This document shows, piece by piece, positions 4,885-50,491 of a stretch of 64,000 nt of DNA. This DNA is from a plasmid. The notes under the pieces were generated by a model. That model had not been told where the DNA came from, did not search any database, and worked only from the letters and a program-made list of their open reading frames with translations. Made by a program: the position numbers and the translations under genes. The stretch's first letter is position 1. Every line of letters begins with the position of its first letter. Location of the stretch: sequence record OW967251.1; one strand, given 5' to 3'.

Positions 4885-5941
4885 GGCTTTGTTGAATAAA
4901 TCGAACTTTTGCTGAGTTGAAGGATCAGATCACGTATCTTCCCGACAACGCAGACCGTTCCGTGGCAAAGCAAAAGTTCAAAATCACCAACTGGCCCACC
5001 TACAATAAAGCCCTCATCAACCGTGGCTCCATAACTTTCTGGCTGGATGATGAAGCTATTCAGGCCTGGTATGAGTCAGCAACACCTTCTTCACGAGGCA
5101 GACCTCAGCGCTATTCTGACCTTGCCATCACGACTGTGCTGGTCATTAAACGCGTATTCAGGCTGACCCTGCGCGCTGCGCAGGGCTTTATTGATTCCAT
5201 TTTTTCTCTGATGAACGTTCCGCTACGCTGCCCGGATTACAGCTGTGTCAGCAGGCAGGCAAAGTCGGTTAATGTCAGTTTCAAAACGCCCACCCGGGGT
5301 GAAATCGCACACCTGGTAATTGATTCCACCGGGCTGAAGGTCTTCGGTGAAGGCGAGTGGAAAGTCAAAAAGCATGGCCAGGAACGCCGCCGTATCTGGC
5401 GTAAGCTGCATCTCGCCGTTGACAGTAAAACACATGAAATCATCTGCGCTGACCTGTCGCTGAACAATGTGACGGACTCAGAAGCCTTCCCGGGTCTTAT
5501 CCGGCAGACTCACAGAAAAATCAGGGCAGCATCGGCAGACGGCGCTTACGACACCCGGCTCTGTCACGATGAACTGCGGCGTAAGAAAATCAGCGCGCTT
5601 ATCCCACCCCGAAAAGGTGCGGGTTACTGGCCCGGTGAATATGCAGACCGTAACCGTGCAGTGGCTAATCAGCAAATGACCGGGAGTAATGCGCGGTGGA
5701 AATGGACAACAGATTACAACCGTCGCTCGATAGCGGAAACGGCGATGTACCGGGTAAAACAGCTGTTCGGGGGGGCACTGACGCTGCGTGACTACGATGG
5801 TCAGGTTGCGGAGGCTATGGCCCTGGTACGAGCGCTGAACAAAATGACGAAAGCAGGTATGCCTGAAAGCGTGCGTATTGCCTGAAAACACAACCCGCTA
5901 CGGGGGAGACTTACCCGAAATCTGATTTATTCAACAAAGCC
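4885..5941 (+). mobile_element. IS903 (IS5 family, IS903 group), complete at 1057 bp, with no flanking direct repeat
   Basis: Terminal IRs GGCTTTGTTGAATAAATC at 4885 and GATTTATTCAACAAAGCC ending 5941. Flanks tcccaaaat and tataaaaga differ, implying an adjacent deletion. Confidence 0.85.
4962..5885 (+). CDS. tnpA: IS903 transposase (probable GTG start, VAKQKFKITNW...)
   Basis: 307-aa DDE transposase with the NWPTYNKALINRGS motif of the IS903 group. The ORF track extends it upstream to 4917. Confidence 0.8.
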   Translation: MAKQKFKITNWPTYNKALINRGSITFWLDDEAIQAWYESATPSSRGRPQRYSDLAITTVLVIKRVFRLTLRAAQGFIDSIFSLMNVPLRCPDYSCVSRQAKSVNVSFKTPTRGEIAHLVIDSTGLKVFGEGEWKVKKHGQERRRIWRKLHLAVDSKTHEIICADLSLNNVTDSEAFPGLIRQTHRKIRAASADGAYDTRLCHDELRRKKISALIPPRKGAGYWPGEYADRNRAVANQQMTGSNARWKWTTDYNRRSIAETAMYRVKQLFGGALTLRDYDGQVAEAMALVRALNKMTKAGMPESVRIA

Positions 5942-6815: not shown

Positions 6816-7291
6816 CTTAAGCTATCTTCACCCAAATGCAGATATCCGGTTACACGTTGCAATGCGTAACATTATCAATAATAACCCGATTATAACATGA
6901 ATTTTCGTTTTGTAATGCCGATGTCACACAACATTTTACTCTGTTTTTTTCAAAAAAGAGTGTCTTTATTTTGGTGTACACCTTAGTGTGCGATCGCCCA
7001 GCAAGAAATGAATATTCGTTCTATACTAGTGGGTAAAAAACCGCATTACATGCATCGCTTAAAAGTTGCACCATGCATCTGGAGCCTTCACGAGGCTATT
7101 AATAACGCATGAATTATCTCTGTAAATCATAACCAGTATCTATCCGAACCATGTCACATTATTTGATTCATACCCGGGATGAGTAAGGCAAGAATAGGTA
7201 TACTGGAATAGTATGTTCAGTGCCAGCTAATCGGTCAGTGAAGTTGGCGAAAATATAGCTTTATATCTTTTCAATTTGAGGGGAGATCTGC

Positions 7292-38227: not shown

Positions 38228-38620
38228 TAATTAATAAGTGTCATCAAAAGCATCCATCACCATTATCATAATTGGCCCTGATCAAATAAAATTTAACTTA
38301 TGTTGCGCGAGAATTCAGTTCATGAAAAAAATATCAGTATCATATTGTTTTTAATTATTATTTTCGTTCCCGGTTATATCCTATATCCAGGGTTCATGCC
38401 GCGCCGTATCCTGAGACTGGCTGAGAATACGAATGATCGTAACCACCGAATGTGATGACACAAAATAGATCATGTGCTGTTCCACCGGCAGCGAGCAGAT
38501 ATTGTCTCCCAGCTCCGCGCGATGCGTGCCTATGTCATGCATGGCCAGAACGTCAAACACCGCTGCTATACTGTTACCAACGGTGCAAAACTGGGTCTTC
38601 CGCAACTTAGGTGGAGTTGT

Positions 38621-39418
38621 TTAAGCCAGAGGGCTCATGACTCGTCGTCGCAGTAACTCGAAGCCAGCTCGACCGTACATCTGCCGTTTCAGCATCTTCA
38701 GGCGGTTTACATGGCCTTCCACAACGCCATTACTCCATCTGCTGCTTATCGCTTCGTGTATTGCTGTTGCATCCGCTTCCATACCGGCCGCAACACGCTG
38801 AAGGTCAATGAGCCCACTTTGACTGACGTCAGAGAACCATTGATTTAACTGCGATTTATTCTTCGTTTTCAACATTCGATAGAAGTCGAGCGACAGCTGT
38901 TGCGCCATTTTCAGTTGCGGTTCTTTCTGGCACATCGATTCGATGAAGCGGGATGCATAGTTTTCTTCTCCTCTGATCATTCGCCAGGGCATTAACCAGC
39001 GGCTTACTCTGGATGCTGAGGGGAGTCGAACTGGGGCGATAACGGGACTGTTAACCTGCTTACGCCACTTAGCCACAGCATCCCTGACCGTCGTTTCGCT
39101 CCCGGTGAAGCCAGCATTTACCATCTCCCGCCATAGCTGCCCGGCATTATGGTTACCGTTTATCCGTTGTTCTTCCAGCCATTCCTGCCATGGTTCAAGT
39201 AACCCGGGTCTGGGTGGCTTAGTTGATATTTCAGGGAACGCTTTTGACTGTATCCACCGGCGAACCGTCACCCGGGACAGTCCGGTGATACGCGATATTT
39301 CTCTTATCCCACAACCCTTTTTATGAAGAGAGTCTACCTCAGCCCAGCGCTGATACCGTTTGTCACGTTGCTCTCGTTTAATACGTTCAGGGCGACGTAA
39401 CGTTGACGTTGGCACCAA
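38621..39418 (-). CDS. ISL3 transposase C-terminal part
   Basis: 265 aa ending ...WSNGVVEGHVNRLKMLKRQMYGRAGFELLRRRV. The split from the N-terminal ORF occurs near a T6G6 run at 39437-39448. Confidence 0.7.
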   Translation of the reverse strand: MVPTSTLRRPERIKREQRDKRYQRWAEVDSLHKKGCGIREISRITGLSRVTVRRWIQSKAFPEISTKPPRPGLLEPWQEWLEEQRINGNHNAGQLWREMVNAGFTGSETTVRDAVAKWRKQVNSPVIAPVRLPSASRVSRWLMPWRMIRGEENYASRFIESMCQKEPQLKMAQQLSLDFYRMLKTKNKSQLNQWFSDVSQSGLIDLQRVAAGMEADATAIHEAISSRWSNGVVEGHVNRLKMLKRQMYGRAGFELLRRRVMSPLA

Positions 39419-39425
39419 AGACGCT

Positions 39426-40241
39426 TCAGCATTCTGTTTTTTGGGGGGATAACTCGGTGGCCACCAGTCGTATCAATGGCATGTGTCTGTACATCATGCG
39501 CTCCAGCGCATCACCAATATTCTTCAGCAGATGCCAGCGATCGGCCACCTGTATTGCCTGCGGTGCACCATCGCGAGCAGCTAACGCATAGATCCCCCCA
39601 CGATCGCGTGAGACGACCTGTATTTCTGGGTATTTTTTGAACCATGCCGCCAGAGTGCGTTGCTCCCGGCCTGGCAGTAACACCAGGGGGCGATGGGTAT
39701 CAAGATTTACGATCAGTGTGCCGTACCTGTGGCCCCGATGCCATGCCCACTCGTCAATACCAACATGCCTGGTCCGGTTCTCTGTTTGTTCCGGAGCTTG
39801 AACCACTCTGCGCAGTAAAGTATCCGCGCTGATCTGTATTCCTGAAGCTACTGCAGCTCGTCTCCCTGCTTCACCACCTGCGATAAGCCCCAGCTGATGC
39901 TGCAGATTTTTCAGCAATGCAGAAGACTGCTGCTGCGGGCCTGCAAAGGGAGCAAGCGATTCAGCAAAAATTTTACGTGAACAGGAAGGGTTACGACAGT
40001 ACCAGTGCCGGATGGCGAAGACTAACCAGAGGGCCTGGCCTGAGCATGGAAGATGCTGTACTCGCCTCCGCCGGCAACTATGAACAGAATGACTGTGCGT
40101 GAGGCACTCAGGACATGATGCCGTTTTACGTGTGGCGCGGAGATGGAGGGTTATTCCATCAGTACCAGTAATCTGTCGGCAGGTTTGCCACCCGCGCGGT
40201 AGCTGTAAAAGTCTCTTAAGTGAGGCCATTTTGTTATACAT
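39426..40241 (-). CDS. ISL3 transposase N-terminal part (zinc finger plus DDE start)
   Basis: 271 aa with CPEC...H.H zinc ribbon and DEWAWHRGHRYGTLIVNLDTHRPL. Confidence 0.7.
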   Translation of the reverse strand: MYNKMASLKRLLQLPRGWQTCRQITGTDGITLHLRATRKTASCPECLTHSHSVHSCRRRRVQHLPCSGQALWLVFAIRHWYCRNPSCSRKIFAESLAPFAGPQQQSSALLKNLQHQLGLIAGGEAGRRAAVASGIQISADTLLRRVVQAPEQTENRTRHVGIDEWAWHRGHRYGTLIVNLDTHRPLVLLPGREQRTLAAWFKKYPEIQVVSRDRGGIYALAARDGAPQAIQVADRWHLLKNIGDALERMMYRHMPLIRLVATELSPQKTEC

Positions 40242-40336
40242 AACTTAAAACAGCTTAGATCCTTGTTAACTAAAAAGTTTCATCAATTTTTGTCCACCTA
40301 AGTTGCGGAAGACCCACTTTTTACCCGTTGTTGACA

Positions 40337-40812
40337 GCGGAGCACACCTTAACCCCGTGGTAAGCCTGATTTTTTATCTGATCGGGGCCTGCTCTTTCAG
40401 GGCAACCATGAATTACATCGTGGCTCAGTTGTTAGGGGCCGGCGCTGCTGCACTGTGCCTGAAGGCTGTCTTTGGCCACTCCCTGCTGGCCGGGGTGACC
40501 CGGGTCCATATGGGGGTATCACTGTACAATGCCTTTTTCATCGAAGGTGTCATGACTTTTATTCTGATTATGAGCATCCTAACGACCAGAAACCCCGCGA
40601 TTATCAGCATTGCTGTTTTTCTTGATGCTTTTATTGGCGGGCCGCTGACGGGGGCAAGCATGAACCCGGCCCGTAGCTTCGGGCCGGCATTGGCCATGGG
40701 ATACTGGGATAATCAGTGGCTGTACTGGGCCGCTCCGCTGTCTGGCGGGCTTGCAGCTGTTGCGTGCTGCCAGCTGTTTATGCCGCAACTGAAGTCACCC
40801 TCACCGGAATAA
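40337..40812 (+). pseudogene. MIP-family aquaglyceroporin (AqpS/GlpF-like), 5'-truncated by the ISL3 element
   Basis: Frame begins inside the ISL3 IR. Two NPA boxes (SGAHLNPVVS, GASMNPARS) but about 60 N-terminal residues are absent. Terminator hairpin follows at 40826-40860. Confidence 0.7.
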
Positions 40813-40861: not shown

Positions 40862-41389
40862 TCAGCAACCCACTGTCCGGCTACGCCTTTCCAGAATGAG
40901 AACATCTCTCCATTTTCCGTTCATTTCACCCACATTTTCCCGGCAGCCGACTTCCCTGAATCCCTGGCTGCGATGTAAAGCAACACTGGCCTGGTTTTCC
41001 GGAAAGATGCCAGCAAGTAGCGTCCAGAAACCCGCACTTTCCGAGCCCTTTATCAGCCCGGAGAGCAAAGCCCTGCCCGCGCCTTTTCCCTGAAAATGAG
41101 TACTGACATAAATGCTCAGCTCTGCGACACCGCGGTATGCATGCCGGCGGGAAAAAGGAGATAGCGCAGCCCATCCCACCACTCTGTTATCAACAGTGGC
41201 GACGTAGCGGCAGTCCTGAAGATGCCCTTCATTCCATTCCAGCCACTCAGGTGCTGCGGTCTGAAAGGTGGCGTTCCCTGTTGCAATTCCTTCCTGATAA
41301 ATTTCCCTGACTGCACACCAGTCCTCTTCGTGCATTTTTCTAATGATGATCTCTGCCATTTCTCTGTACCGTATGTTTGCTGTATTCAT
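40862..41389 (-). CDS. GNAT N-acetyltransferase, PAT (phosphinothricin acetyltransferase) family, ArsN1-like
   Basis: 175 aa; PAT-like ATVDNRVVGWAAL...YRGVAELSIYV...QGKGAGRALL. Divergent from arsR2. Confidence 0.7.
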   Translation of the reverse strand: MNTANIRYREMAEIIIRKMHEEDWCAVREIYQEGIATGNATFQTAAPEWLEWNEGHLQDCRYVATVDNRVVGWAALSPFSRRHAYRGVAELSIYVSTHFQGKGAGRALLSGLIKGSESAGFWTLLAGIFPENQASVALHRSQGFREVGCRENVGEMNGKWRDVLILERRSRTVGC

Positions 41390-41690
41390 AGGCAGTCAGA
41401 AAACGAGCCTGCCTGGGCTTCCCGGCGGCGGGACATAATGCGCCCGTCAGCAAAGGATGAAGGTCATTTTATTTTTAGCGGGAATCGGTTTCTACTGTGA
41501 CGGATTCATATGCATTTTTCCATATATATTGTGACGTACCTCATTTCTGAGAGGTATAAACACCGATCATGTTTTCTCCATGCCGCGTAAGTGTAAGGCC
41601 CCGGAGATGGAGTCATATTATGGACGTGGTTGCGCTCACTATATATTTCTATTATTCTGGAAATATAGAAATAAAATTACGAGGAATGGG

Positions 41691-42017
41691 ATGGAGCTGA
41701 AAATCGCCGCGATGGTGCTGAAAGAACTTGGCCACACCACTCGTCTCGATATTTACAAAACACTCGTTAAGGCCGGACGTCAGGGACTGCCCGTGGGGGA
41801 ACTGCAGCAACATCTCGCCATTCCGGCCTCGACCCTGAGTCATCATCTTTCATCGCTGATATCCGTCTCACTGGTTCGCCAGGAAAGGCAGGGGAGAACA
41901 CTGTTCTGCCACGCCTGTTATGACAACCTTGCTGCATTGATTGCCTTTCTGACAGAAGAGTGCTGTGCAGACGAATATGCCCCGCCTGGTTTTATGTCAC
42001 CACCGGAGAAAAAATGA
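41691..42017 (+). CDS. arsR: ArsR/SmtB-family repressor, atypical: lacks the ELCVCDL site and has C-terminal Cys73/76/91/92
   Basis: 108 aa; [23 protein letters not shown]; FCHAC...EECC. Confidence 0.7.
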
Positions 42018-42727
42018 TTGCTGAACTGAAAAATGTTGTTCCTGAGCTGTTTGATACAGGTCGCACCGGGGTCCGCCTGGGTGTAAAGACAGTTGACCAT
42101 CCTCCCCGGATCCTGATGTTGTACGGTTCCGTTCGAGAGCGGTCCTACAGCCGTCTGGCCACCGAAGAGGCTGCCCGGCTTCTTACCGCCATGGGTGCGG
42201 ATGTCCGCATCTTTAATCCTTCCGGTCTCCCTCTGCCGGATGATGCAGCGGATACGCATCCCAGGGTTATGGAACTTCGCGAAATGGTGCGCTGGTCTGA
42301 AGGGATGGTATGGTGCTCTCCTGAACGTCATGGTGCGATGACCGGCATTATGAAAGCCCAGATTGACTGGATACCACTATCAGAGGGCGCAGTACGCCCT
42401 TCTCAGGGAAAAACCCTGGCCGTCATGCAGGTCTGCGGAGGCTCCCAGTCTTTCAATGCGGTAAACCAGATGCGTATTCTTGGCCGCTGGATGCGAATGA
42501 TTACTATACCTAATCAATCCTCGGTAGCGAAAGCCTGGCAGGAGTTTGATGAAGACGGACGGATGAAACCATCCCCGTACTACGACCGTATTGTGGATGT
42601 AATGGAAGAGCTGATGAAGTTTACCCTGCTGACCCGGGAGTATGCAGCGTATCTCGTCGATCGCTACAGTGAACGTAAAGAGTCGGCAGAAGCACTTTCC
42701 CGGCGGGTGAATCAGAGCAAAATCTGA
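42014..42727 (+). CDS. arsH: ArsH (NADPH-dependent FMN reductase / organoarsenical oxidase)
   Basis: 237 aa with [15 protein letters not shown] motif. Start overlaps the arsR2 stop. Confidence 0.85.
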
Positions 42728-42735
42728 GGGCTGGT

Positions 42736-43281
42736 ATGAGTGATGTAACGGCATTCAACAACTGCATGAGCGTGTTCTGGCAACAGCATGAAGCAGAGCT
42801 CTCCCGTTTTCTGGCATCAAGGACAGGCGATCGGGAGCAGGCAGCCGATCTGCTTCAGGAAGTCTTCCTGCGCGCCCGGGCCTGTGCAGACCGCTTCTGT
42901 GAAATGGAGAACCCGCGGGCCTGGCTGTACCGGACGGCGAGGAATCTGCTGACGGATGAGTACCGTGCCGCCAGAGACGTCGTGGTGCTGGAAGACGAGA
43001 TCCCGCTGCCTGACGCCTTCCATGAGGCGGTTTCAACGCTGGAGATTTGCCTGCCTGAAACCCTGCAGGCCTTACCTGACGAGGAAAGATGGCTGATAGA
43101 AGAGGCCGATCTGAACCGGCGTCCCCAGCAGCGCCTGGCCGACGAGCTGGGGATCACGCTGACGGCGTTTAAGTCGCGCCTGCTTCGCGCCCGGAAACAT
43201 CTGAAGAAGACGATGACGGAACTCTGCCAGGTGGAAGTGGATGATGCGTCTTCCGTCTGCTGCCATAAAAAAATGGATTAA
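42736..43281 (+). CDS. ECF-type sigma-70 family factor with a C-terminal Cys-containing tail
   Basis: Region 2 (AADLLQEVFLRA...RAWLYRTARNLLTDEYR) and region 4 (LPDEERWLIEEADLNRRPQQRLADELGITLTAFKSRLLRARKHL), then tail TMTELCQVEVDDASSVCCHKKMD. No anti-sigma ORF adjacent. Confidence 0.7.
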   Translation: MSDVTAFNNCMSVFWQQHEAELSRFLASRTGDREQAADLLQEVFLRARACADRFCEMENPRAWLYRTARNLLTDEYRAARDVVVLEDEIPLPDAFHEAVSTLEICLPETLQALPDEERWLIEEADLNRRPQQRLADELGITLTAFKSRLLRARKHLKKTMTELCQVEVDDASSVCCHKKMD

Positions 43282-43356
43282 CCGCGCATCTTTTTCCCGC
43301 CTCACTCGTTTACCTCAGTGTAAAGCCCCATCATTCAACACTGAGGTAAACAGTCC

Positions 43357-43719
43357 ATGTCAAAAATTGAGATCTTTGAAGCCGCAGGCTGCTGTGCGAC
43401 CAGCAGCGTCGTGGTCAGCGATGAAGCCGTCAAATGGAACGCCAGCGCCGAATGGGCGAAAAAGCATGGTGTGAATATTCAGCGTTACAGCCTGGCAAAG
43501 AACCCGCAGCAGTTCCTGAATACGCCCGTCATCAGGGCCTTCCTGAACACGTCAGGAATGGAGTCCCTTCCCGCTACCCTGCTTGACGGCCAGCTGGTGA
43601 TGGCGGGCAAGCTCCCGTCCCGGGAAGATATCGCCCGCTGGGCCGGTATTTCCCTCACGCAGGACTGGAATGAAGACAGCACGCAGCCGCGCTGCTGCAG
43701 CATTCCCCGTATGCCTTAA
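43357..43719 (+). CDS. arsD: Divergent ArsD-like metallochaperone paralog
   Basis: 120 aa; thioredoxin-like ArsD architecture. Keeps the N-terminal CC (GCCATSS) and a C-terminal CC (PRCCSIP) but not Cys18. Confidence 0.6.
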   Translation: MSKIEIFEAAGCCATSSVVVSDEAVKWNASAEWAKKHGVNIQRYSLAKNPQQFLNTPVIRAFLNTSGMESLPATLLDGQLVMAGKLPSREDIARWAGISLTQDWNEDSTQPRCCSIPRMP

Positions 43720-43737
43720 TCCCGGAGGAGCTCAACA

Positions 43738-45494
43738 ATGACGATGCCATTTTTACAGAATATCCCCCCGTTTATCTTCTTCACCGGCAAAGGCGGCGTG
43801 GGGAAAACCTCTCTGGCCTGCGCGACGGCGGTATGGCTGGCTGACCAGGGCCGGAGAACGCTTCTGGTCAGTACCGATCCGGCCTCCAATGTCGGTCAGG
43901 TCTTCAGCCAGACTGTGGGCCACCGGATCACTGGTATCCGCACCGTGGAAAACCTTGCGGCAATGGAAGTTGACCCGATGGCGGCCGCGCAGGCTTACCG
44001 CGATCGCGTGCTCGATCCTGTTCGTGAACTGATGCCTGCCGATGTCATCAGCAACATTGAAGAACAGCTTTCCGGTTCATGTACCACGGAGATCGCGGCG
44101 TTTGATGAATTTACCGCGCTGCTGACCAGTCATGAACTGCGCGAAAAATATGATCATATCGTCTTTGATACTGCACCAACCGGACACACCATCCGTATGC
44201 TTGAGCTGCCGGGCGCCTGGAGCGGGTACCTCGATGCACATCCTGATGCTGCGGCGAACCTCGGCCCTCTGGTGGGGCTGGAGAAACAACAGGACCAGTA
44301 CGCTGACGCAGTGAAAGCCCTCTCTGATACGGCACTCACGCGACTGGTTCTGGTTGCCCGCGCACAGGCGTCGACCCTGAAAGAGGTCTCCCATACCCAC
44401 GAGGAGCTGTCGGCTATCGGTCTGCAGCATCAGCACCTTGCCATCAATGGCGTGCTGCCTCCCTTTGCCGGTGAACAGGATCCGCTGGCGCACAGTATTC
44501 TGGCGCGGGAGGAACGGGCCTTACGGGCCATGCCTGAAAACCTCGCGCATCTTCCCCGGTCGATGCTGTATCTGAAGCCTTTTAATCTGGTTGGTCTGGA
44601 AGCCCTGAGGGCGCTGTTTACAGAGAGCACACTTGTTCTGCCGGATCCGGGAGCCACGCTCACGACGGTCGATTTACCGGAGCTTGCCTCCCTGGTGGAG
44701 GACCTCAGCCGAGCGGGAAAAGGGCTGGTCATGACGATGGGAAAAGGGGGCGTGGGGAAAACCACGGTGGCGGCTGCGGTCGCGGTCTCGCTGGCCAGAC
44801 GCGGTCATAAAGTCCACCTGACCACCTCCGATCCGGCAGCCACCTGTCTTACACCCTGGATGGCTCGCTGCCAGGCCTTCAGGTCAGCCGTATCGATCCA
44901 AAAGCAGAGACTGAGCGCTATCGTCGCTTTGTGCTGGAAAATCAGGGAAAAGGTCTGGATGAAGAGGGACTGGCGGTACTGGAGGAAGATCTCCGTTCCC
45001 CCTGCACCGAAGAGATTGCCGTGTTTCAGGCATTCTCCCGGATCATCAAAGAGGCCAACGACCATTTTGTCATTATAGACACTGCGCCCACCGGGCATAC
45101 GCTGCTGTTGCTGGATGCAACCGGGGCCTATCACCGGGAAATGGTGCGCCAGATGGGGCAGGCTCACGATCACGTGATAACGCCAATGATGCAGCTGCAG
45201 GATCCGGAGAAGACCAGAGTCATTATCGTGACGCTTGCCGAAACCACGCCGGTACTGGAAGCGGCCGGGCTGCAGCAGGACTTACGCCGGGCCGGGATTG
45301 AACCCTGGGCGTGGGTCATCAATAACAGCCTCGCGGCCGCGAAGCCGTCCTCCCCGTTCCTGGTCACCCGTGCCCGTCGCGAACTGCCGCTGATCGACGA
45401 CGTTGCCGGGCATTATGCACAGCGCATTGCCCTGACGCCACTGCTGAAGGACGACCCGGTAGGCGTGGACCTGCTGGCTGAAATGGCGGGCTGA
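43738..45494 (+). pseudogene. arsA: ArsA arsenite-stimulated ATPase paralog with a frameshift near 44836-44846
   Basis: N-terminal half with GKGGVGKTS P-loop reads to about 44838. The second half (HLSYTLDGSLPGLQVSRIDP..., second P-loop at 44750) continues in another frame to 45494. GCAGCCACCTG versus expected GCAGCCCACCTG. Confidence 0.75.
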
Positions 45495-45615: not shown

Positions 45616-46152
45616 ATGCACATTATCAATGCTGAAGAGCAGCACATTCCCGCCATACGGCGCATTTACGCCCATCATGTCCTGCACGGCACAGGCAGCT
45701 TCGAGACGGAACCCCCGGACACGCAGGAAATGCTTGCCCGGGTGAAAAATGTTCAGTCACGTGGATTTCCCTGGTATATCGCCCTGCAGGGGGAGACGGT
45801 CATCGGCTACTGTTATCTCTCCCGCTACCGCGAACGCCATGCCTACCGGTTTACGGTTGAAAATTCGGTGTACATCGATCCGGCTTATCAGCGGCAGGGG
45901 GGCGGAAAAGCCTTACTCGATCATGCCTTAACATGGGCCCGGTCTCAGGGATACCGCCAGATGATAGCGGTTGTGGGGGACAGTGCGAACGTCGCGTCTG
46001 TAGCGCTGCATCTTCGCGCCGGATTTACTGAAATCGGCACGCTGAAGGACATCGGTTTCAAGCATGGCCGCTGGCTGGACACGGTGTTGCTGCAGCGTCA
46101 GCTGGGAAAAGGGAGCTGTACGCTGCCGGACAGTCCGGTACCCGGACGCTGA
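45616..46152 (+). CDS. PAT-family GNAT acetyltransferase (ArsN1-like)
   Basis: 178 aa; ALQGETVIGYCYL...YRFTVENSVYIDPAYQRQGGGKALL. Confidence 0.7.
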   Translation: MHIINAEEQHIPAIRRIYAHHVLHGTGSFETEPPDTQEMLARVKNVQSRGFPWYIALQGETVIGYCYLSRYRERHAYRFTVENSVYIDPAYQRQGGGKALLDHALTWARSQGYRQMIAVVGDSANVASVALHLRAGFTEIGTLKDIGFKHGRWLDTVLLQRQLGKGSCTLPDSPVPGR

Positions 46153-46184: not shown

Positions 46185-46610
46185 TTATTTCAGCCGTTTC
46201 CCTGCCTCATCTACTACTTTCTCGCCGTCTTCCTTAGCAAATGCGCCTTTTTGCGCATCCGGAAGAATATCCAGTACCACTTCGGAAGGGCGGCACAGAC
46301 GCGTTCCCAACGGTGTCACCACAATCGGACGGTTAATCAGGATCGGATGCTGAAGCATAAAATCGATTAACTGATCGTCAGTAAACTTATCTTCCTCAAG
46401 CCCCAGTTCTTCATAAGGCTCGACGTTTTTGCGCAGCAAAGCCCGGACTGAAATGCCCATATCTGCAATGAGTTTGACCAGCTCATCGCGTGACGGTGGA
46501 TTTTCAAGGTAATGAATAACGGTCGGTTCATTACCACTGTTGCGGATCATCTCCAGCGTATTACGCGACGTGCCGCAGGCCGGGTTGTGATAAATGGTGA
46601 TGTTGCTCAT
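46185..46610 (-). CDS. arsC: Arsenate reductase ArsC (glutaredoxin-coupled, R773 type)
   Basis: 141-aa MSNITIYHNPACGTSRNTL with catalytic Cys12. Confidence 0.9.
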   Translation of the reverse strand: MSNITIYHNPACGTSRNTLEMIRNSGNEPTVIHYLENPPSRDELVKLIADMGISVRALLRKNVEPYEELGLEEDKFTDDQLIDFMLQHPILINRPIVVTPLGTRLCRPSEVVLDILPDAQKGAFAKEDGEKVVDEAGKRLK

Positions 46611-46622
46611 ATCAGTATCTCA

Positions 46623-47912
46623 TTACAAAGTGAAAGAGAGACGTAGCGCCAGCGCTGCCAGCGTTACAAACAGCACAGGCAGAGTCATGACGATCCCGGT
46701 GCGGAAATAGTATCCCCAGGTGATGGTCATATTCTTCTGTGAAAGGACATGCAGCCAGAGCAGCGTTGCCAGGCTACCAATAGGTGTAATTTTAGGTCCC
46801 AGATCGCAGCCAATCACGTTGGCGTAGATCATCGCTTCTTTGATAACGCCTGTTGCGGTGCTTCCATCGATAGAAAGAGCGCCAACCAGCACGGTAGGCA
46901 TGTTGTTCATGATGGAAGACAGGAAAGCCGTCAGGAAGCCAGTACCCAGCGTTGCAGCCCAGAGTCCTTTATCCGCAAGTACATTCAGCACACCTGAAAG
47001 GTATTCGGTTAGCCCGGCGTTGCGCAGACCGTAGACCACCAGGTACATCCCCAATGAGAAGATGACGATCTGCCATGGCGCACCGCGCAGCACTTTGCCA
47101 GTTTTAATGGCATGGCCTCGTTTAGCTACTGCAAACAGGATCACAGCTCCAACAGCCGCAATCGCGCTAACGGGAATACCAAGCGGCTCAAGGACAAAGA
47201 ACCCAACCAGCAGAAGTATTAAAACTATCCAGCCGGTTCTGAAGGTTGCCAGATCTTTAATCGCTTTTGCCGGTGCTTTCAGAAGAGCCAGGTCGTAAGT
47301 CGGTGGGATATCCTTGCGGAAGAACAAATGCAGCATAACCAACGTGGCAACAATGGCTGCAATATCCACCGGCACCATTACCGACGCATACTCGGTGAAG
47401 CCCAGTCCAAAGAAGTCTGCAGAAACGATGTTAACCAGGTTGGACACGATAAGCGGCAGGCTGGCTGTATCGGCAATAAACCCGGCAGCCATGACGAATG
47501 CCAGTGTCGTGCCTTTGCTGAACCCTAATGCCAGCAGCATGGCGATGACTATCGGCGTCAGAATAAGTGCCGCACCATCGTTGGCAAACAGTGCCGCCAC
47601 CGCTGCACCAAGCAGAACGATATACGTAAAGAGCAAACGGCCACGACCGTTACCCCAGCGCGAAACATGCAATGCCGCCCATTCGAAAAAGCCGGACTCA
47701 TCAAGCAGCAGGCTGATAATAATCACGGCAATAAAGGTCGCCGTCGCGTTCCAGACGATATTCCACACCACCGGAATATCGCCCACATGCACAACGCCAG
47801 ATATCAGAGCCAGTCCCGCGCCCAGCATTGCACTCCAGCCGATCCCTAATCCCTTTGGTTGCCAGATAACCAAAACAATGGTCAGGACAAAAATAGCGCC
47901 TGCCAGTAACAT
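46623..47912 (-). CDS. arsB: Arsenite efflux permease ArsB
   Basis: 429-aa, 12-TM. Confidence 0.9.
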
Positions 47913-47959
47913 AAAACCTCCTGACAGGGCGACTTTGTCGCCCTGTAGATGTCAAAAAA

Positions 47960-49711
47960 TTAACTCATCAACTCTCTGAGCTTTTCAATACCGGCGGGCT
48001 CTGACGCCAGCACCGGAACAAGCGCTATACGGTCAGCATGCTGATTCTTAACAGCCTCAATCTGAGGCAGTTCCTGTTGAGCACGCTGACAAAGCAACGG
48101 AGAACGCGTATCCGCAATGGAAAGGCTGTTATTGATAATCCAGCCCCACGGATGAATCCCCGCTCTTTCAAGGTCAGCCTGCAGGTTTGCCGCTTCCAGC
48201 ACCGGTGTGGTTTCAGGAAGCGTAACCAGCAGAACTTTGGTTCTATCCGGGTCCTGAAGCTGCATCATGGGGGTAGTAAAATGACCTTTACTCCCCATTT
48301 TTTTGGCAATCTCTCGGTGATAAGCCCCGGTCGCATCCAGCAACAGCAGCGTGTGTCCGGTAGGGGCGGTATCCATGACAACAAAGCGCTTACCCGCTTC
48401 ACGAATCACACGGGAGAAGGCCTGAAACACGGCAATTTCTTCAGTACAGGGAGAGCGTAAATCCTCTTCCAGTAACCGTTTCCCTGCTTCGTCCAGATCT
48501 CTTCCCTTCGTCTCAAGAACATGCTGGCGATAGCGTTCGGTTTCATCGTGAGGGTTGATGCGGCTGACCTGCAGGTTTTTGAGGCTGCCGTTCAGCGTTG
48601 TACTCAGGTGCGCAGCAGGATCAGAGGTCGTGAGATGCACGTCAAATCCCATGTCGGCCAGCCTGACGGCGATGGCGGCAGCCATCGTGGTTTTCCCTAC
48701 ACCACCTTTGCCCATCAGCATAATCAGGCCGTGTTCACTGCGAGCGATATCATCGACCAGGCCAGAGAGTGATAAGTTTTCAGGCGTGTACAGGATGTTC
48801 GTTACCGGGAGCGGTAATGCCTCAGAACGGGTAGCCAGCAGTCCCTTCAATGCTGAAACACCAACCATATTGACTGGCTGGAGTAACAGGGTATCTGTCG
48901 GTAGCTCAGATAAACCGGCAGGAAGATTTGCCAGTGCCTCCTGCTCACGTTGCCATATCGCCGCGGCCAGGGCGTCATGTTCAGCTTCGGCTTCAGGCAG
49001 CACACCATTAATCACCAGATATTGATTTTTCAGGCCAATCTCAGCCAGTTCCTCATGAGTGCGGGCGACTTCCTGCAGCGTAGAATTTTGCAGTCGTGCA
49101 ACCAGAACCAAGCGGGTACGTTCAGGGTCGGATAACGCCTCTACCGCATGAGCATACTGCTCACGCTGCTTTTCCAGCCCGGCCATCGGGCCAAGACAGG
49201 AGGCACCATCTGGATTGCTTTCAATAAAGCTACTCCAGGCACCAGGAAGCTGGAGAAGGCGAATCGTGTGGCCCGTCGGCGCGGTATCAAAAATGATGTG
49301 ATCGAAACGGGTCAGCAGGGAAGCGTCTGTCAATAAGCCGGTGAACTCATCAAACGCCGCAATCTCAGTGGTGCAGGCTCCTGAAAGCTGCTCGCTGATA
49401 CTGTTAACAACGTCATCAGGCAGAAGACCTTTGATAGGATCAACGATTCTGGCCCGATATTGCCGGGCGGCTTCCTGCGGGTCAATCTCCAGAGCAGAAA
49501 GCCCAGGAACTGCTGTCACAGGGCGAATCGTGTTACCGATAGCCAGATCGAATACCTGACCGACATTGGAGGCCGGGTCGGTACTGACCAGCAAAACCCG
49601 CTTACCCTGTTCGGCAAGGTGGATAGCCGTCGCGCAGGAAATGGAAGTTTTTCCTACACCACCCTTGCCAGTAAAAAACAGGTAAGGCGGGATATTCTGT
49701 AATAATTTCAT
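47960..49711 (-). CDS. arsA: Arsenite-stimulated ATPase ArsA
   Basis: 583 aa from MKLLQNIPPYLFFTGKGGVGKTS. Two P-loops and metalloid-binding Cys. RBS AGGAGG is 7 nt upstream. Confidence 0.9.
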   Translation of the reverse strand: MKLLQNIPPYLFFTGKGGVGKTSISCATAIHLAEQGKRVLLVSTDPASNVGQVFDLAIGNTIRPVTAVPGLSALEIDPQEAARQYRARIVDPIKGLLPDDVVNSISEQLSGACTTEIAAFDEFTGLLTDASLLTRFDHIIFDTAPTGHTIRLLQLPGAWSSFIESNPDGASCLGPMAGLEKQREQYAHAVEALSDPERTRLVLVARLQNSTLQEVARTHEELAEIGLKNQYLVINGVLPEAEAEHDALAAAIWQREQEALANLPAGLSELPTDTLLLQPVNMVGVSALKGLLATRSEALPLPVTNILYTPENLSLSGLVDDIARSEHGLIMLMGKGGVGKTTMAAAIAVRLADMGFDVHLTTSDPAAHLSTTLNGSLKNLQVSRINPHDETERYRQHVLETKGRDLDEAGKRLLEEDLRSPCTEEIAVFQAFSRVIREAGKRFVVMDTAPTGHTLLLLDATGAYHREIAKKMGSKGHFTTPMMQLQDPDRTKVLLVTLPETTPVLEAANLQADLERAGIHPWGWIINNSLSIADTRSPLLCQRAQQELPQIEAVKNQHADRIALVPVLASEPAGIEKLRELMS

Positions 49712-49728
49712 ATGTCCTCCTGACATAT

Positions 49729-50091
49729 TCAGCAACAGGAAGTATTACCACCACAGCAACTGGTGGGAGCTAACCCTACCTTCTCCAGCGGAATACCGAA
49801 CCAGCGAGCCAGCTCAGCGCGTTTTGGGTATCGCCCAGCCATCACCGTTTCGCCGTCCAGCAACAGCAGCGGAAGCCCTTCTGCGCCGGATGCATCGAGG
49901 AAGGCTTTCGCTTTCTCATTGTGAACAAAGCTCATGGGCTGCTGCGCCAGGTTGTAACGTTCAACCTGTACGCCACGTCCTTTCAGCCACTGCATATCAG
50001 CAGAAAAATCAACCAGAACCTGATCGACATCTGAACCACATACACCGGTACTGCAGCACATTGCCGGGTCAAACACCGTTAACGTCTTCAT
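49729..50091 (-). CDS. arsD: Arsenic metallochaperone and repressor ArsD
   Basis: 120-aa MKTLTVFDPAMCCSTGVCG...CCGGNTSCC. Confidence 0.9.
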   Translation of the reverse strand: MKTLTVFDPAMCCSTGVCGSDVDQVLVDFSADMQWLKGRGVQVERYNLAQQPMSFVHNEKAKAFLDASGAEGLPLLLLDGETVMAGRYPKRAELARWFGIPLEKVGLAPTSCCGGNTSCC

Positions 50092-50140
50092 TCTGAATAC
50101 CTCATACATTCGAAAAAACACATATGTTCAGGCAAATTTT

Positions 50141-50491
50141 TTAGATGCAAACAGCCTTACCGCTACCAGAGCAGTTTGCCGATGCCAGCTTACGGGCGAT
50201 GGCCTGTACGTCGTCCTGTTGGCTTAACCAGGCCTGCTCAATCACCTGAGCAGCCCAGGAAGGAATATGCGGGGATAAGCGATAATGAACCCATTTCCCC
50301 TGCTTGCGATCCAGCAATAGACCGCTTTCCCGGAGCATTGCCAGATGACGGGAGATCTTGGGCTGGGACTCATCCAGCGCCGTGCAGAAATCGCAGACGC
50401 ACAGTTCTCCCAGCTCCCTGAGCAGCAGGACAATACCCAGACGGGTTTCATCGGACAGGTTTTTGAAAAGCTTAAGGGCTGTAAGGGGCAT
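50141..50491 (-). CDS. arsR: Arsenical resistance repressor ArsR (canonical ELCVCDF site)
   Basis: 117-aa MPLTALKLFKNLSDETRLGIVLLLRELGELCVCDFC. RBS AGGAGG. Confidence 0.9.
   Translation of the reverse strand: MPLTALKLFKNLSDETRLGIVLLLRELGELCVCDFCTALDESQPKISRHLAMLRESGLLLDRKQGKWVHYRLSPHIPSWAAQVIEQAWLSQQDDVQAIARKLASANCSGSGKAVCI

Follow-up and report, generated by a model that had tools for sequence, protein, structure and literature searches.

The 64,000-nucleotide stretch of plasmid record OW967251.1 analysed here (the window) belongs to a pKPN3-like IncFIB/FII plasmid of Klebsiella pneumoniae and carries, at 42736..43281 on the plus strand, a gene for a 181-aa extracytoplasmic function (ECF) sigma factor of SigZ/ECF238-like type, embedded among arsenic-resistance (ars) genes. 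The plasmid sigma factor falls in a distinct beta/gamma-proteobacterial clade in which 29 of 32 loci have at least one ars or arr gene no more than seven genes away. The most far-reaching interpretation, to which a probability of about 0.35 is given, is that this clade of ars/arr islands consists of self-contained metalloid-sensing sigma factors, in which trivalent arsenicals would be bound directly at two cysteine sites, C10/C55 and C105/C164/C175/C176, and a dedicated promoter would be switched on. The parts of this reading differ in probability: the module is likely to respond to arsenic in some way, binding of the metalloid by the sigma factor itself is a tentative proposal put at somewhat under even odds, and the vicinal pair C175-C176 is unlikely to be the key ligand.

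Identification of the Sigma Factor

Two Pfam domains were found in the product of the gene, which has an ATG start: Sigma70_r2 at residues 15–80 (49 bits) and Sigma70_r4_2 at residues 105–156 (37 bits). The NCBIfam model of the ECF superfamily, TIGR02937, was matched with 70.6 bits against a cut-off of 42.9, and by these domains and this score the protein belongs to the ECF (group 4) sigma-70 family. Its profile matches in the Protein Data Bank (PDB) were all ECF sigma factors, and its RefSeq entry, WP_004182005.1, is named "sigma-70 family RNA polymerase sigma factor". The C-terminus of the protein is CQVEVDDASSVCCHKKMD and the end of the open reading frame (ORF) reads ...TELCQVEVDDASSVCCHKKMD. 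The ATG at 42736 follows the end of arsH (42727) by 8 nt, and a gap of 75 nt separates the sigma stop codon from an ArsD-family gene. A sequence-only reading of the window had described an ECF sigma factor with regions 2 and 4 in this position and no visible anti-sigma gene, and the domain matches, TIGR02937 and the coordinates agree with it. No anti-sigma gene was found among the neighbours within 5 kb, all of which are ars-related (ArsR, ArsH, ArsD, an ArsA pseudogene, two ArsN1-like GNATs and arsCBADR), and no anti-sigma family was present among the top Pfam families of the neighbours in the 32 clade loci. The H-x3-C-x2-C motif in the style of zinc-binding anti-sigma factors (ZAS) is absent from the sigma sequence.

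The 4.7-kb stretch around the gene matched 1,523 plasmid records, of which 992 showed at least 99% identity, the gene being carried on very common clinical Klebsiella plasmids. Full-length 181-aa orthologues were found in Klebsiella, Salmonella, E. coli, Citrobacter, Enterobacter, Pluralibacter and Cedecea, and a dN/dS of 0.12, calculated against two orthologues, indicates purifying selection.

The best NCBIfam model for the protein was that of SigZ, TIGR02959 (138.3 bits; equivalog cut-off 168.65), and as the match spans residues 15–179 the tail belongs to the family model and is no add-on. The score with NF007215 was 119.4 bits against a cut-off of 212. Orthology with SigZ was rejected, both scores lying under the equivalog cut-offs, and SigZ is the nearest family. 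Group ECF238 holds SigZ and CorE2 and is characterized by a Cys-rich extension of about 20 aa and the lack of an anti-sigma factor (PMC7826278). The plasmid sigma factor has a short C-terminal tail of 18 aa with C164, C175, C176 and H177, and its conserved neighbourhood, in the window and in the 32 loci, holds no anti-sigma gene. On these features we are inclined to regard it as an anti-sigma-independent ECF sigma factor of a distinct arsenic-island clade, placed within or sister to the SigZ/CorE2 group ECF238.

Genomic Context of the Clade

The clade was taken as the 32 loci with sigma factors of at least 38% identity, from Rhodocyclaceae, Rhodoferax, Azoarcus, Pseudomonas, Mangrovitalea, Halofilum and others. 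The genes around each sigma gene were called, scanned against Pfam and clustered, and representatives were named by NCBIfam. The most frequent neighbour was an ArsP_1 permease (PF03773), mostly directly after the sigma gene, in 20 loci, followed by an MTH895/ArsE-type thioredoxin-like protein (15 loci), ArsR (12), Acr3 (9), ArsA (7) and low-molecular-weight phosphatase-type ArsC (6); ArsD and ArsH also occur. A functional tie to arsenic genes, as the sequence-only reading had supposed, is thus upheld, since in 29 of the 32 loci, which come from widely separated taxa, the sigma gene lies in an ars/arr cluster; nine of these 29 have an ArsP-family permease alone, with or without the thioredoxin-like gene. 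About 20 of the 32 loci have no ArsR gene near the sigma gene, and stand-alone sigma-permease-thioredoxin modules without ArsR occur, for example, in Vibrio salinus, Mangrovitalea and Rhodoferax.

An ArrA-like molybdoenzyme, which scored 1,025 bits with the ArrA model and 236 with the next family, was found together with an ArrB-like subunit in six loci, and a TorD-type chaperone in four. These Arr-like neighbours resemble respiratory arsenate reductase or an enzyme closely related to it; the ArrA score is under the NCBI strict cut-off, and the enzyme may be ArrA or ArxA. The ArrA-like, ArrB-like and TorD-like genes adjoin the sigma gene in loci L008, L009, L018, L026, L030 and L036; the order is arrA-arrB-chaperone-sigma in L018, L030 and L036, and the permease comes next in L018 and L030.

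The order arsR-arsH-sigma-arsD-arsA is kept in E. coli, Salmonella and Citrobacter, and that in Cedecea is sigma-arsD-arsA. In all the enterobacterial loci with a recovered upstream flank, except Cedecea, the sigma gene is the last of an arsR-arsH-sigma or arsR-sigma unit. Outside the clade, an Acetobacterium metagenome-assembled genome (L054) has a SigZ-type sigma gene (29% identity) directly after arsA-arsD-arsR-arsD genes, and sigma factors of this group may have become linked to arsenic genes on more than one occasion.

Predicted Promoter

A two-block motif, summarized as GCATCY-N15-CGTYT, was found 4–130 nt after the sigma stop codon in 23 loci (consensus GCATCC-TTTT-N11-TCGTCT, that is, GCATCC, 15 nt and CGTCT). 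In Enterobacterales it stands before arsD-arsA, and in most taxa before the gene of the ArsP-family permease. Its layout is that of ECF promoters in general, in which a spacer without conservation separates a −35 block from a −10 block that contains CGT. A weight matrix was built from 18 non-enterobacterial loci only, and both strands of the window were scanned with it. The site at 43286..43311 on the plus strand (−35 GCATCT at 43286–43291, 15-nt spacer, −10 CGTTT at 43307–43311) scored 25.1 bits, the next best site 17.3 bits and the highest of 30 shuffled sequences 16.9 bits. The predicted promoter begins 5 nt after the sigma stop codon, with an inferred start site near 43319–43320. The motif was found at the same place in the held-out loci of Klebsiella sp. 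I138, Cedecea, E. coli, Salmonella and Citrobacter and in a metagenomic contig (L002, L083, L086–L089). A search for an ECF promoter before arsD2/arsA2 or the acetyltransferase (PAT) genes had been proposed in the sequence-only reading; such a promoter was found, the sole strong match in the window lying directly 5′ of arsD2, and no copy was found before the acetyltransferase genes.

When the target gene is displaced from the sigma gene the motif stays with the target (L006, L020, L089). Citrobacter amalonaticus (L088) has two copies, at 5551–5576 and 6860–6885, before acr3 and before arsD, which points to a small multi-promoter regulon. In six loci (L008, L009, L014, L030, L036, L038) the permease ATG lies 7–8 nt after the −10 block; this spacing suggests leaderless mRNAs and would indirectly fix the transcription start. 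In the Vibrio salinus locus L084 no matrix match of 17 bits or more was found, and a weak site of 17.3 bits was found in its sister contig L085; the promoter of the V. salinus module is less clear. From its conservation and position, the motif is very probably the promoter of this sigma factor, and in the window it is predicted to serve arsD2-arsA2 and perhaps the following ArsN1-like gene too.

No copy of the motif was found upstream of the sigma or arsR genes in the clade, so the sigma factor appears not to be autoregulated. Distant SigZ-like relatives (30–37% identity; Chloroflexi, Verrucomicrobia and others) have GCATCC...CGTCT 60–300 nt 5′ of their own gene (L039, L040, L042, L043, L045, L049, L055). 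A motif upstream of the own gene is the usual arrangement of ECF autoregulation, and, more widely, GCATCC...CGTCT may serve as a candidate promoter consensus in the SigZ-like part of ECF238. The −10 block is CGTTTAC in all the Enterobacterales examined (L002, L083, L086–L089) versus CGTCT(T/C)C elsewhere (L004–L038), and the −10-reading loop of the sigma factor is FCEMENP in Enterobacterales versus FCxLDNP in other taxa; sigma factor and promoter may have co-evolved.

Published RNA-seq values for the near-identical plasmid pBIC1a in uninduced E. coli are 21 for arsR, 39 for arsH, 47 for the sigma gene (annotated as "hypothetical"), 9 for arsD and 4 for each of two arsA fragments (PMC6286996). 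This profile agrees with a co-transcribed arsR-arsH-sigma unit and a silent downstream promoter. A sigma-70 promoter scan of 41300–43800 gave a single match, on the minus strand at 41494–41466, and no intrinsic terminator was found after the sigma gene in a terminator scan of the same region.

A perfect 14-bp inverted repeat lies at 43308..43351 on the plus strand, with arms at 43308–43321 and 43338–43351. The left arm overlaps the −10 element and the expected start site, and the right arm holds the arsD2 ribosome-binding site (GAGG, 43343–43346). The RNA of 43308–43351 folds with −24.6 kcal/mol (z = −4.4), and the pairing is kept across seven enterobacterial loci: it survives two double changes as well as U.G wobbles, of which three affect one pair and one a second pair. 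As a transcript from the predicted start would be without most of the left arm, the hairpin is expected in read-through RNA only. We speculate that in read-through mRNA it would mask the arsD2 ribosome-binding site, and that arsD2 translation would then need sigma-dependent initiation.

Conserved Cysteines

A homologue search returned 112 homologues, and an alignment of 58 sequences down to 34% identity was prepared. Of the 58 sequences, 54 to 58 have each of C55, C105 and C164, and 51 to 52 have each of C10, C175, C176 and H177; C50 shows no conservation. When the sigma genes from 80 genomic loci were added to refine the conservation, C10, C55, C105 and C164 proved invariant or nearly so in the clade, and the vicinal C175-C176 was present in about two thirds of it, being replaced elsewhere by S-D, A-G or E-G, for example in Rhodoferax and other Burkholderiales. 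The sequence-only reading had made conservation of the tail cysteines among orthologues a condition, and it was found in all the enterobacterial ones; the reading had also taken the vicinal pair as the key feature, a view weakened by the replacement of the pair in about one third of the clade, other cysteines being more conserved. Members that are without the pair keep the ars/arr neighbours and the promoter, and the pair is therefore not essential to the function of the clade.

An exhaustive phmmer search of 1.84 billion cluster representatives gave 1,071 proteins at E ≤ 1e-10, 18 of them at E ≤ 1e-30. Among the full-length proteins (160–260 aa) in the best 150 phmmer matches, 21 have the four core cysteines and CC, 11 the four core cysteines without CC, 65 the SigZ-type pattern (CC at 163–164, terminal CxxC, no C10/C55) and 27 other patterns. 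Without phylogenetic correction, C10 and C55 are both present in 113 sequences, both absent from 91 and found singly in 11, and C10/C55 and C163 are mutually exclusive.

By homology to other ECF sigma factors C55 is assigned to the start of the region 2.2-2.3 loop (FCEMENPRAWLY), the loop that is expected to read the −10 element. In the secondary structure of the AlphaFold model C105 opens sigma-4.1 and C164 closes the recognition helix; the two domains are well modelled (mean pLDDT 82.8; pTM 0.49), and the tail has a pLDDT of about 40. The PDB profile matches included no solved structure of a relative with such a tail. The conserved residues appear to form two groups, a sigma-2 pair of C10 and C55 next to the −10-recognition loop and a sigma-4/tail group of C105, C164, C175, C176 and H177. 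A vicinal Cys pair with a third Cys a few residues off is the classical S3 site for As(III), and a bare vicinal pair is a known type of ligand for MAs(III).

Gene Organization of the Plasmid Locus

The sigma gene is preceded on the plus strand by arsR2 (41691..42017), which encodes an ArsR/SmtB metalloregulator (NCBIfam HTH_metalloreg, 63 bits; cut-off 55) and is the first gene of the arsR2-arsH-sigma unit, and by arsH (42014..42727), of the NADPH-dependent FMN reductase family by RefSeq and by PF03358 (FMN_red) in orthologous neighbours. The arsR2 stop overlaps the arsH start (42014/42017). ArsR2 has C-terminal cysteines (FCHAC...EECCAD) and is without the classical N-terminal CVC site. An imperfect AT-rich palindrome at 41644..41673 (arms 41644–41657 and 41660–41673, 86% complementary), 18 nt 5′ of arsR2, is a candidate ArsR2 operator.

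On the other side the first gene 3′ of the predicted promoter is arsD2 (43357..43719, plus strand), a paralogue of ArsD-family metallochaperones with 80.6 bits on the ArsD chaperone model (cut-off 90). It is followed by arsA2 (43738..45494, plus strand), an ArsA ATPase pseudogene split into two ORFs (43738–45078 and 44931–45494) by a 1-nt deletion near 44840, as compared with the intact gene of Klebsiella sp. I138. The split is also seen in the published annotation of pBIC1a, and the arsA2 orthologues in the E. coli, Salmonella and Citrobacter loci are unbroken (585 aa); because arsA2 is frameshifted, the module has lost part of its output in this plasmid lineage. An ArsN1-like GNAT acetyltransferase gene (45616..46152, plus strand; 147 bits on ArsN1 family B, cut-off 210) begins 121 nt after arsA2, has the same place in the E. 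coli locus L086 and is possibly the last gene of the sigma-dependent unit. A canonical arsRDABC operon lies next on the minus strand (46188–50491).

Upstream of arsR2 a second ArsN1-like GNAT is encoded on the minus strand at 40862–41359 (best NCBIfam match ArsN1 family A, below cut-off). The two GNAT genes flank the module, score best on the models for arsinothricin-resistance ArsN1 and, with arsH, give the cluster an organoarsenical flavour. Further upstream are an aquaporin-family gene (40303–40812, plus strand, 169 aa) that looks 5′-truncated beside an insertion sequence (IS), two adjoining transposase ORFs on the minus strand (38621–39418 and 39426–40241) and a RelE/ParE toxin fragment at 38381–38560. 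The aquaporin gene was probably disrupted by IS insertion.

Proposed Regulation and Alternatives

The regulation that we consider most likely, with moderate confidence, would proceed in three steps. The arsR2-arsH-sigma genes, taken as an operon because of their 8-nt and overlapping junctions, would form one transcription unit held low by ArsR2 and derepressed by arsenicals. The sigma factor with core RNA polymerase would then initiate at GCATCT-N15-CGTTT, a promoter predicted by conservation, and transcribe arsD2-arsA2 and possibly the ArsN1-like gene. Finally, the conserved cysteines would probably also gate the activity of the sigma factor, as in CorE/CorE2, with trivalent arsenicals as the likeliest ligand. 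This sensing step is proposed because of the precedent of CorE/CorE2, the lack of a partner gene and the many clade modules without ArsR, in which nothing else would supply the sigma factor with a signal. Methylarsenite or another organoarsenical may be the ligand, in view of ArsH, the ArsP-family permeases and the ArsN1-like acetyltransferases nearby. The arsenic genes of the window are probably under a second regulatory tier besides the ArsR repressor.

Several points weigh against the proposed explanation. The SigZ score is under the equivalog cut-off and the ECF238 placement was made by the described features of the group. PF03773 also holds Cu/Zn and other efflux proteins, and modules of permease and thioredoxin only are no proof of arsenic specificity. 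The −10 block of the window, CGTTT, departs from the wider consensus CGTCT, its form being common to all the Enterobacterales examined. The tail has no confident fold in the AlphaFold model, and about one third of the clade, as judged from the alignment, is without the vicinal pair yet has the same ars/arr context and promoter. Two further points, the presence of ArsR and the decay of arsA2, lead to explanations of their own.

Except in Cedecea, the operon of the enterobacterial loci examined is headed by an arsR gene upstream on the same strand, and transcription could be the sole level of arsenic control in those loci. ArsR2 would then sense arsenite and derepress arsR2-arsH-sigma, and a sensor-free sigma factor, active once synthesized, would only amplify or delay arsD2-arsA2 expression. 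The lack of a motif 5′ of the sigma or arsR genes, and hence of autoregulation, is consistent with such an arrangement, and the four invariant cysteines, a set usual for structural Zn(Cys)4 sites, could have this structural role and no other; the vicinal pair is dispensable in one third of the clade. The sequence-only reading had foreseen a logic apart from ArsR; in Enterobacterales this has to be given up, the locus looking like an ArsR-to-sigma cascade in which the sigma gene, again except in Cedecea, is last in an arsR-headed unit. As a full account this cascade is nevertheless rather unlikely: about 20 of the 32 clade loci have no nearby ArsR, in several bare sigma-permease-thioredoxin modules the sigma factor is the only regulator, and the relatives CorE and CorE2 have metal-independent expression and metal-dependent activity (PMC6851896).

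A thiol or redox switch was also considered, in which Cys pairs would form disulfides or become modified under arsenical thiol stress and the MTH895/ArsE-type thioredoxin would reset the sigma factor, much as thioredoxin resets RsrA in the SigR system. In its favour, 15 of 32 loci have a thioredoxin-like gene located with that of the permease and 3′ of the sigma-dependent promoter, C10 goes together with C55 and C175 with C176, and conserved Cys pairs have been reported as disulfide sensors in ECF18/19 (PMC7826278). This switch is improbable, as the enterobacterial module has no thioredoxin gene, disulfides between vicinal cysteines are strained, and the genomic context is arsenical and not one of general oxidative stress.

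With arsA2 a pseudogene, the module may be decaying in this plasmid. The stronger view, that it is a remnant second ars cluster of pKPN3-type plasmids whose sigma factor has no current role in the host, is suggested by the arsA2 frameshift, the truncated aquaporin gene at 40303–40812 beside the IS, the complete arsRDABC operon next door and the very low RNA-seq signal of the downstream genes in E. coli, but is very improbable, as about 990 plasmids share identical, intact copies of sigma, arsR2, arsH, arsD2 and the promoter, with a dN/dS of 0.12 over the longer term and the same architecture in relatives with an intact arsA2.

Significance

The regulation of arsenic resistance is taught as repression by ArsR (and ArsD). 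A sigma factor with its own promoter in ars/arr islands would add a positive tier of promoter specificity, that is, an activator tier, and could explain how the genes of permease, ArsDA or Acr3 modules are expressed independently of the core operon. The compact pair of a 181-aa protein and a 26-nt site could become an orthogonal arsenical-responsive switch or a biosensor part, and the natural cysteine variants of the clade, with and without the vicinal pair and with and without the sigma-2 pair, provide material on how short Cys-rich tails gate SigZ/ECF238 sigma factors.

Metal-responsive sigma factors with a Cys-rich tail and without an anti-sigma factor are already established (PMC7826278, PMC8999054, PMC4937300). 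The sequence-only reading had gone too far in calling the regulatory logic new: one-component metal sensing by a sigma tail is known from ECF238, and it is the arsenic link that appears new. No published description of an ars-linked ECF clade, its cysteine signature or its promoter was found, most subscription journals and the ECF Hub subgroup descriptions lying outside the search. An apparent mention of ECF24 in a Cupriavidus paper was discarded as only a prefix match to ECF243, and in a Herminiimonas paper sigma-E only, and no ars-linked ECF, was found.

Comparison with Known Systems

A close precedent is given by CorE and CorE2 of Myxococcus xanthus (ECF44; CorE2 now ECF238). Like the plasmid sigma factor they have no anti-sigma factor, a short Cys-rich C-terminal extension and one or more cysteines at the sigma-2/sigma-4 junction, and their genes are not autoregulated and their targets are adjoining metal-resistance genes (PMC4937300, PMC6851896). 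CorE2 is activated by Cd and Zn through its Cys-rich tail (PMC4937300). Membership of the CorE-like group ECF44 was rejected: its defining CxC (PMC4937300, PMC6851896) is present in no clade member, and the linker of the plasmid protein has the single C105 (...LEICLPE...). The 18-aa tail, with the pattern C-x10-CC-H, and the conserved sigma-2 pair C10/C55, which CorE-type and SigZ-type proteins do not have, also set the plasmid protein apart, as does its context, which is arsenic instead of Cu, Cd or Zn.

SigZ of Bacillus subtilis (TIGR02959; ECF238 subgroup 9) aligns with the plasmid sigma factor end to end, tail included, and C105, C164 and the hairpin-like motif C-x-[VIF]-x-x-D-x-x-G are common to both, SigZ-like relatives having in addition the same promoter motif as the ars clade. 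SigZ-type proteins differ in having CC at 163–164 and a terminal CxxC in place of C10/C55, and are apparently autoregulated, whereas the ars clade is not.

ECF41 and ECF42, to which the sequence-only reading had likened the tail, are also controlled independently of an anti-sigma factor through a C-terminal extension, which exceeds 100 aa (PMC8999054). Regulation of this type was rejected, since their extensions are domains of about 100–200 aa (SnoaL-like, TPR), whereas that of the plasmid protein is cysteine-based, has 18 aa and holds no extra Pfam domain, and the right comparison is with ECF238. With the ArsR/SmtB repressors and ArsD, finally, the plasmid sigma factor shares its genomic neighbourhood and, in their vicinal-Cys sites for As(III) and MAs(III), a likeness of ligands; these proteins are repressors, whereas the sigma factor is a promoter-specificity subunit with a putative metalloid site.

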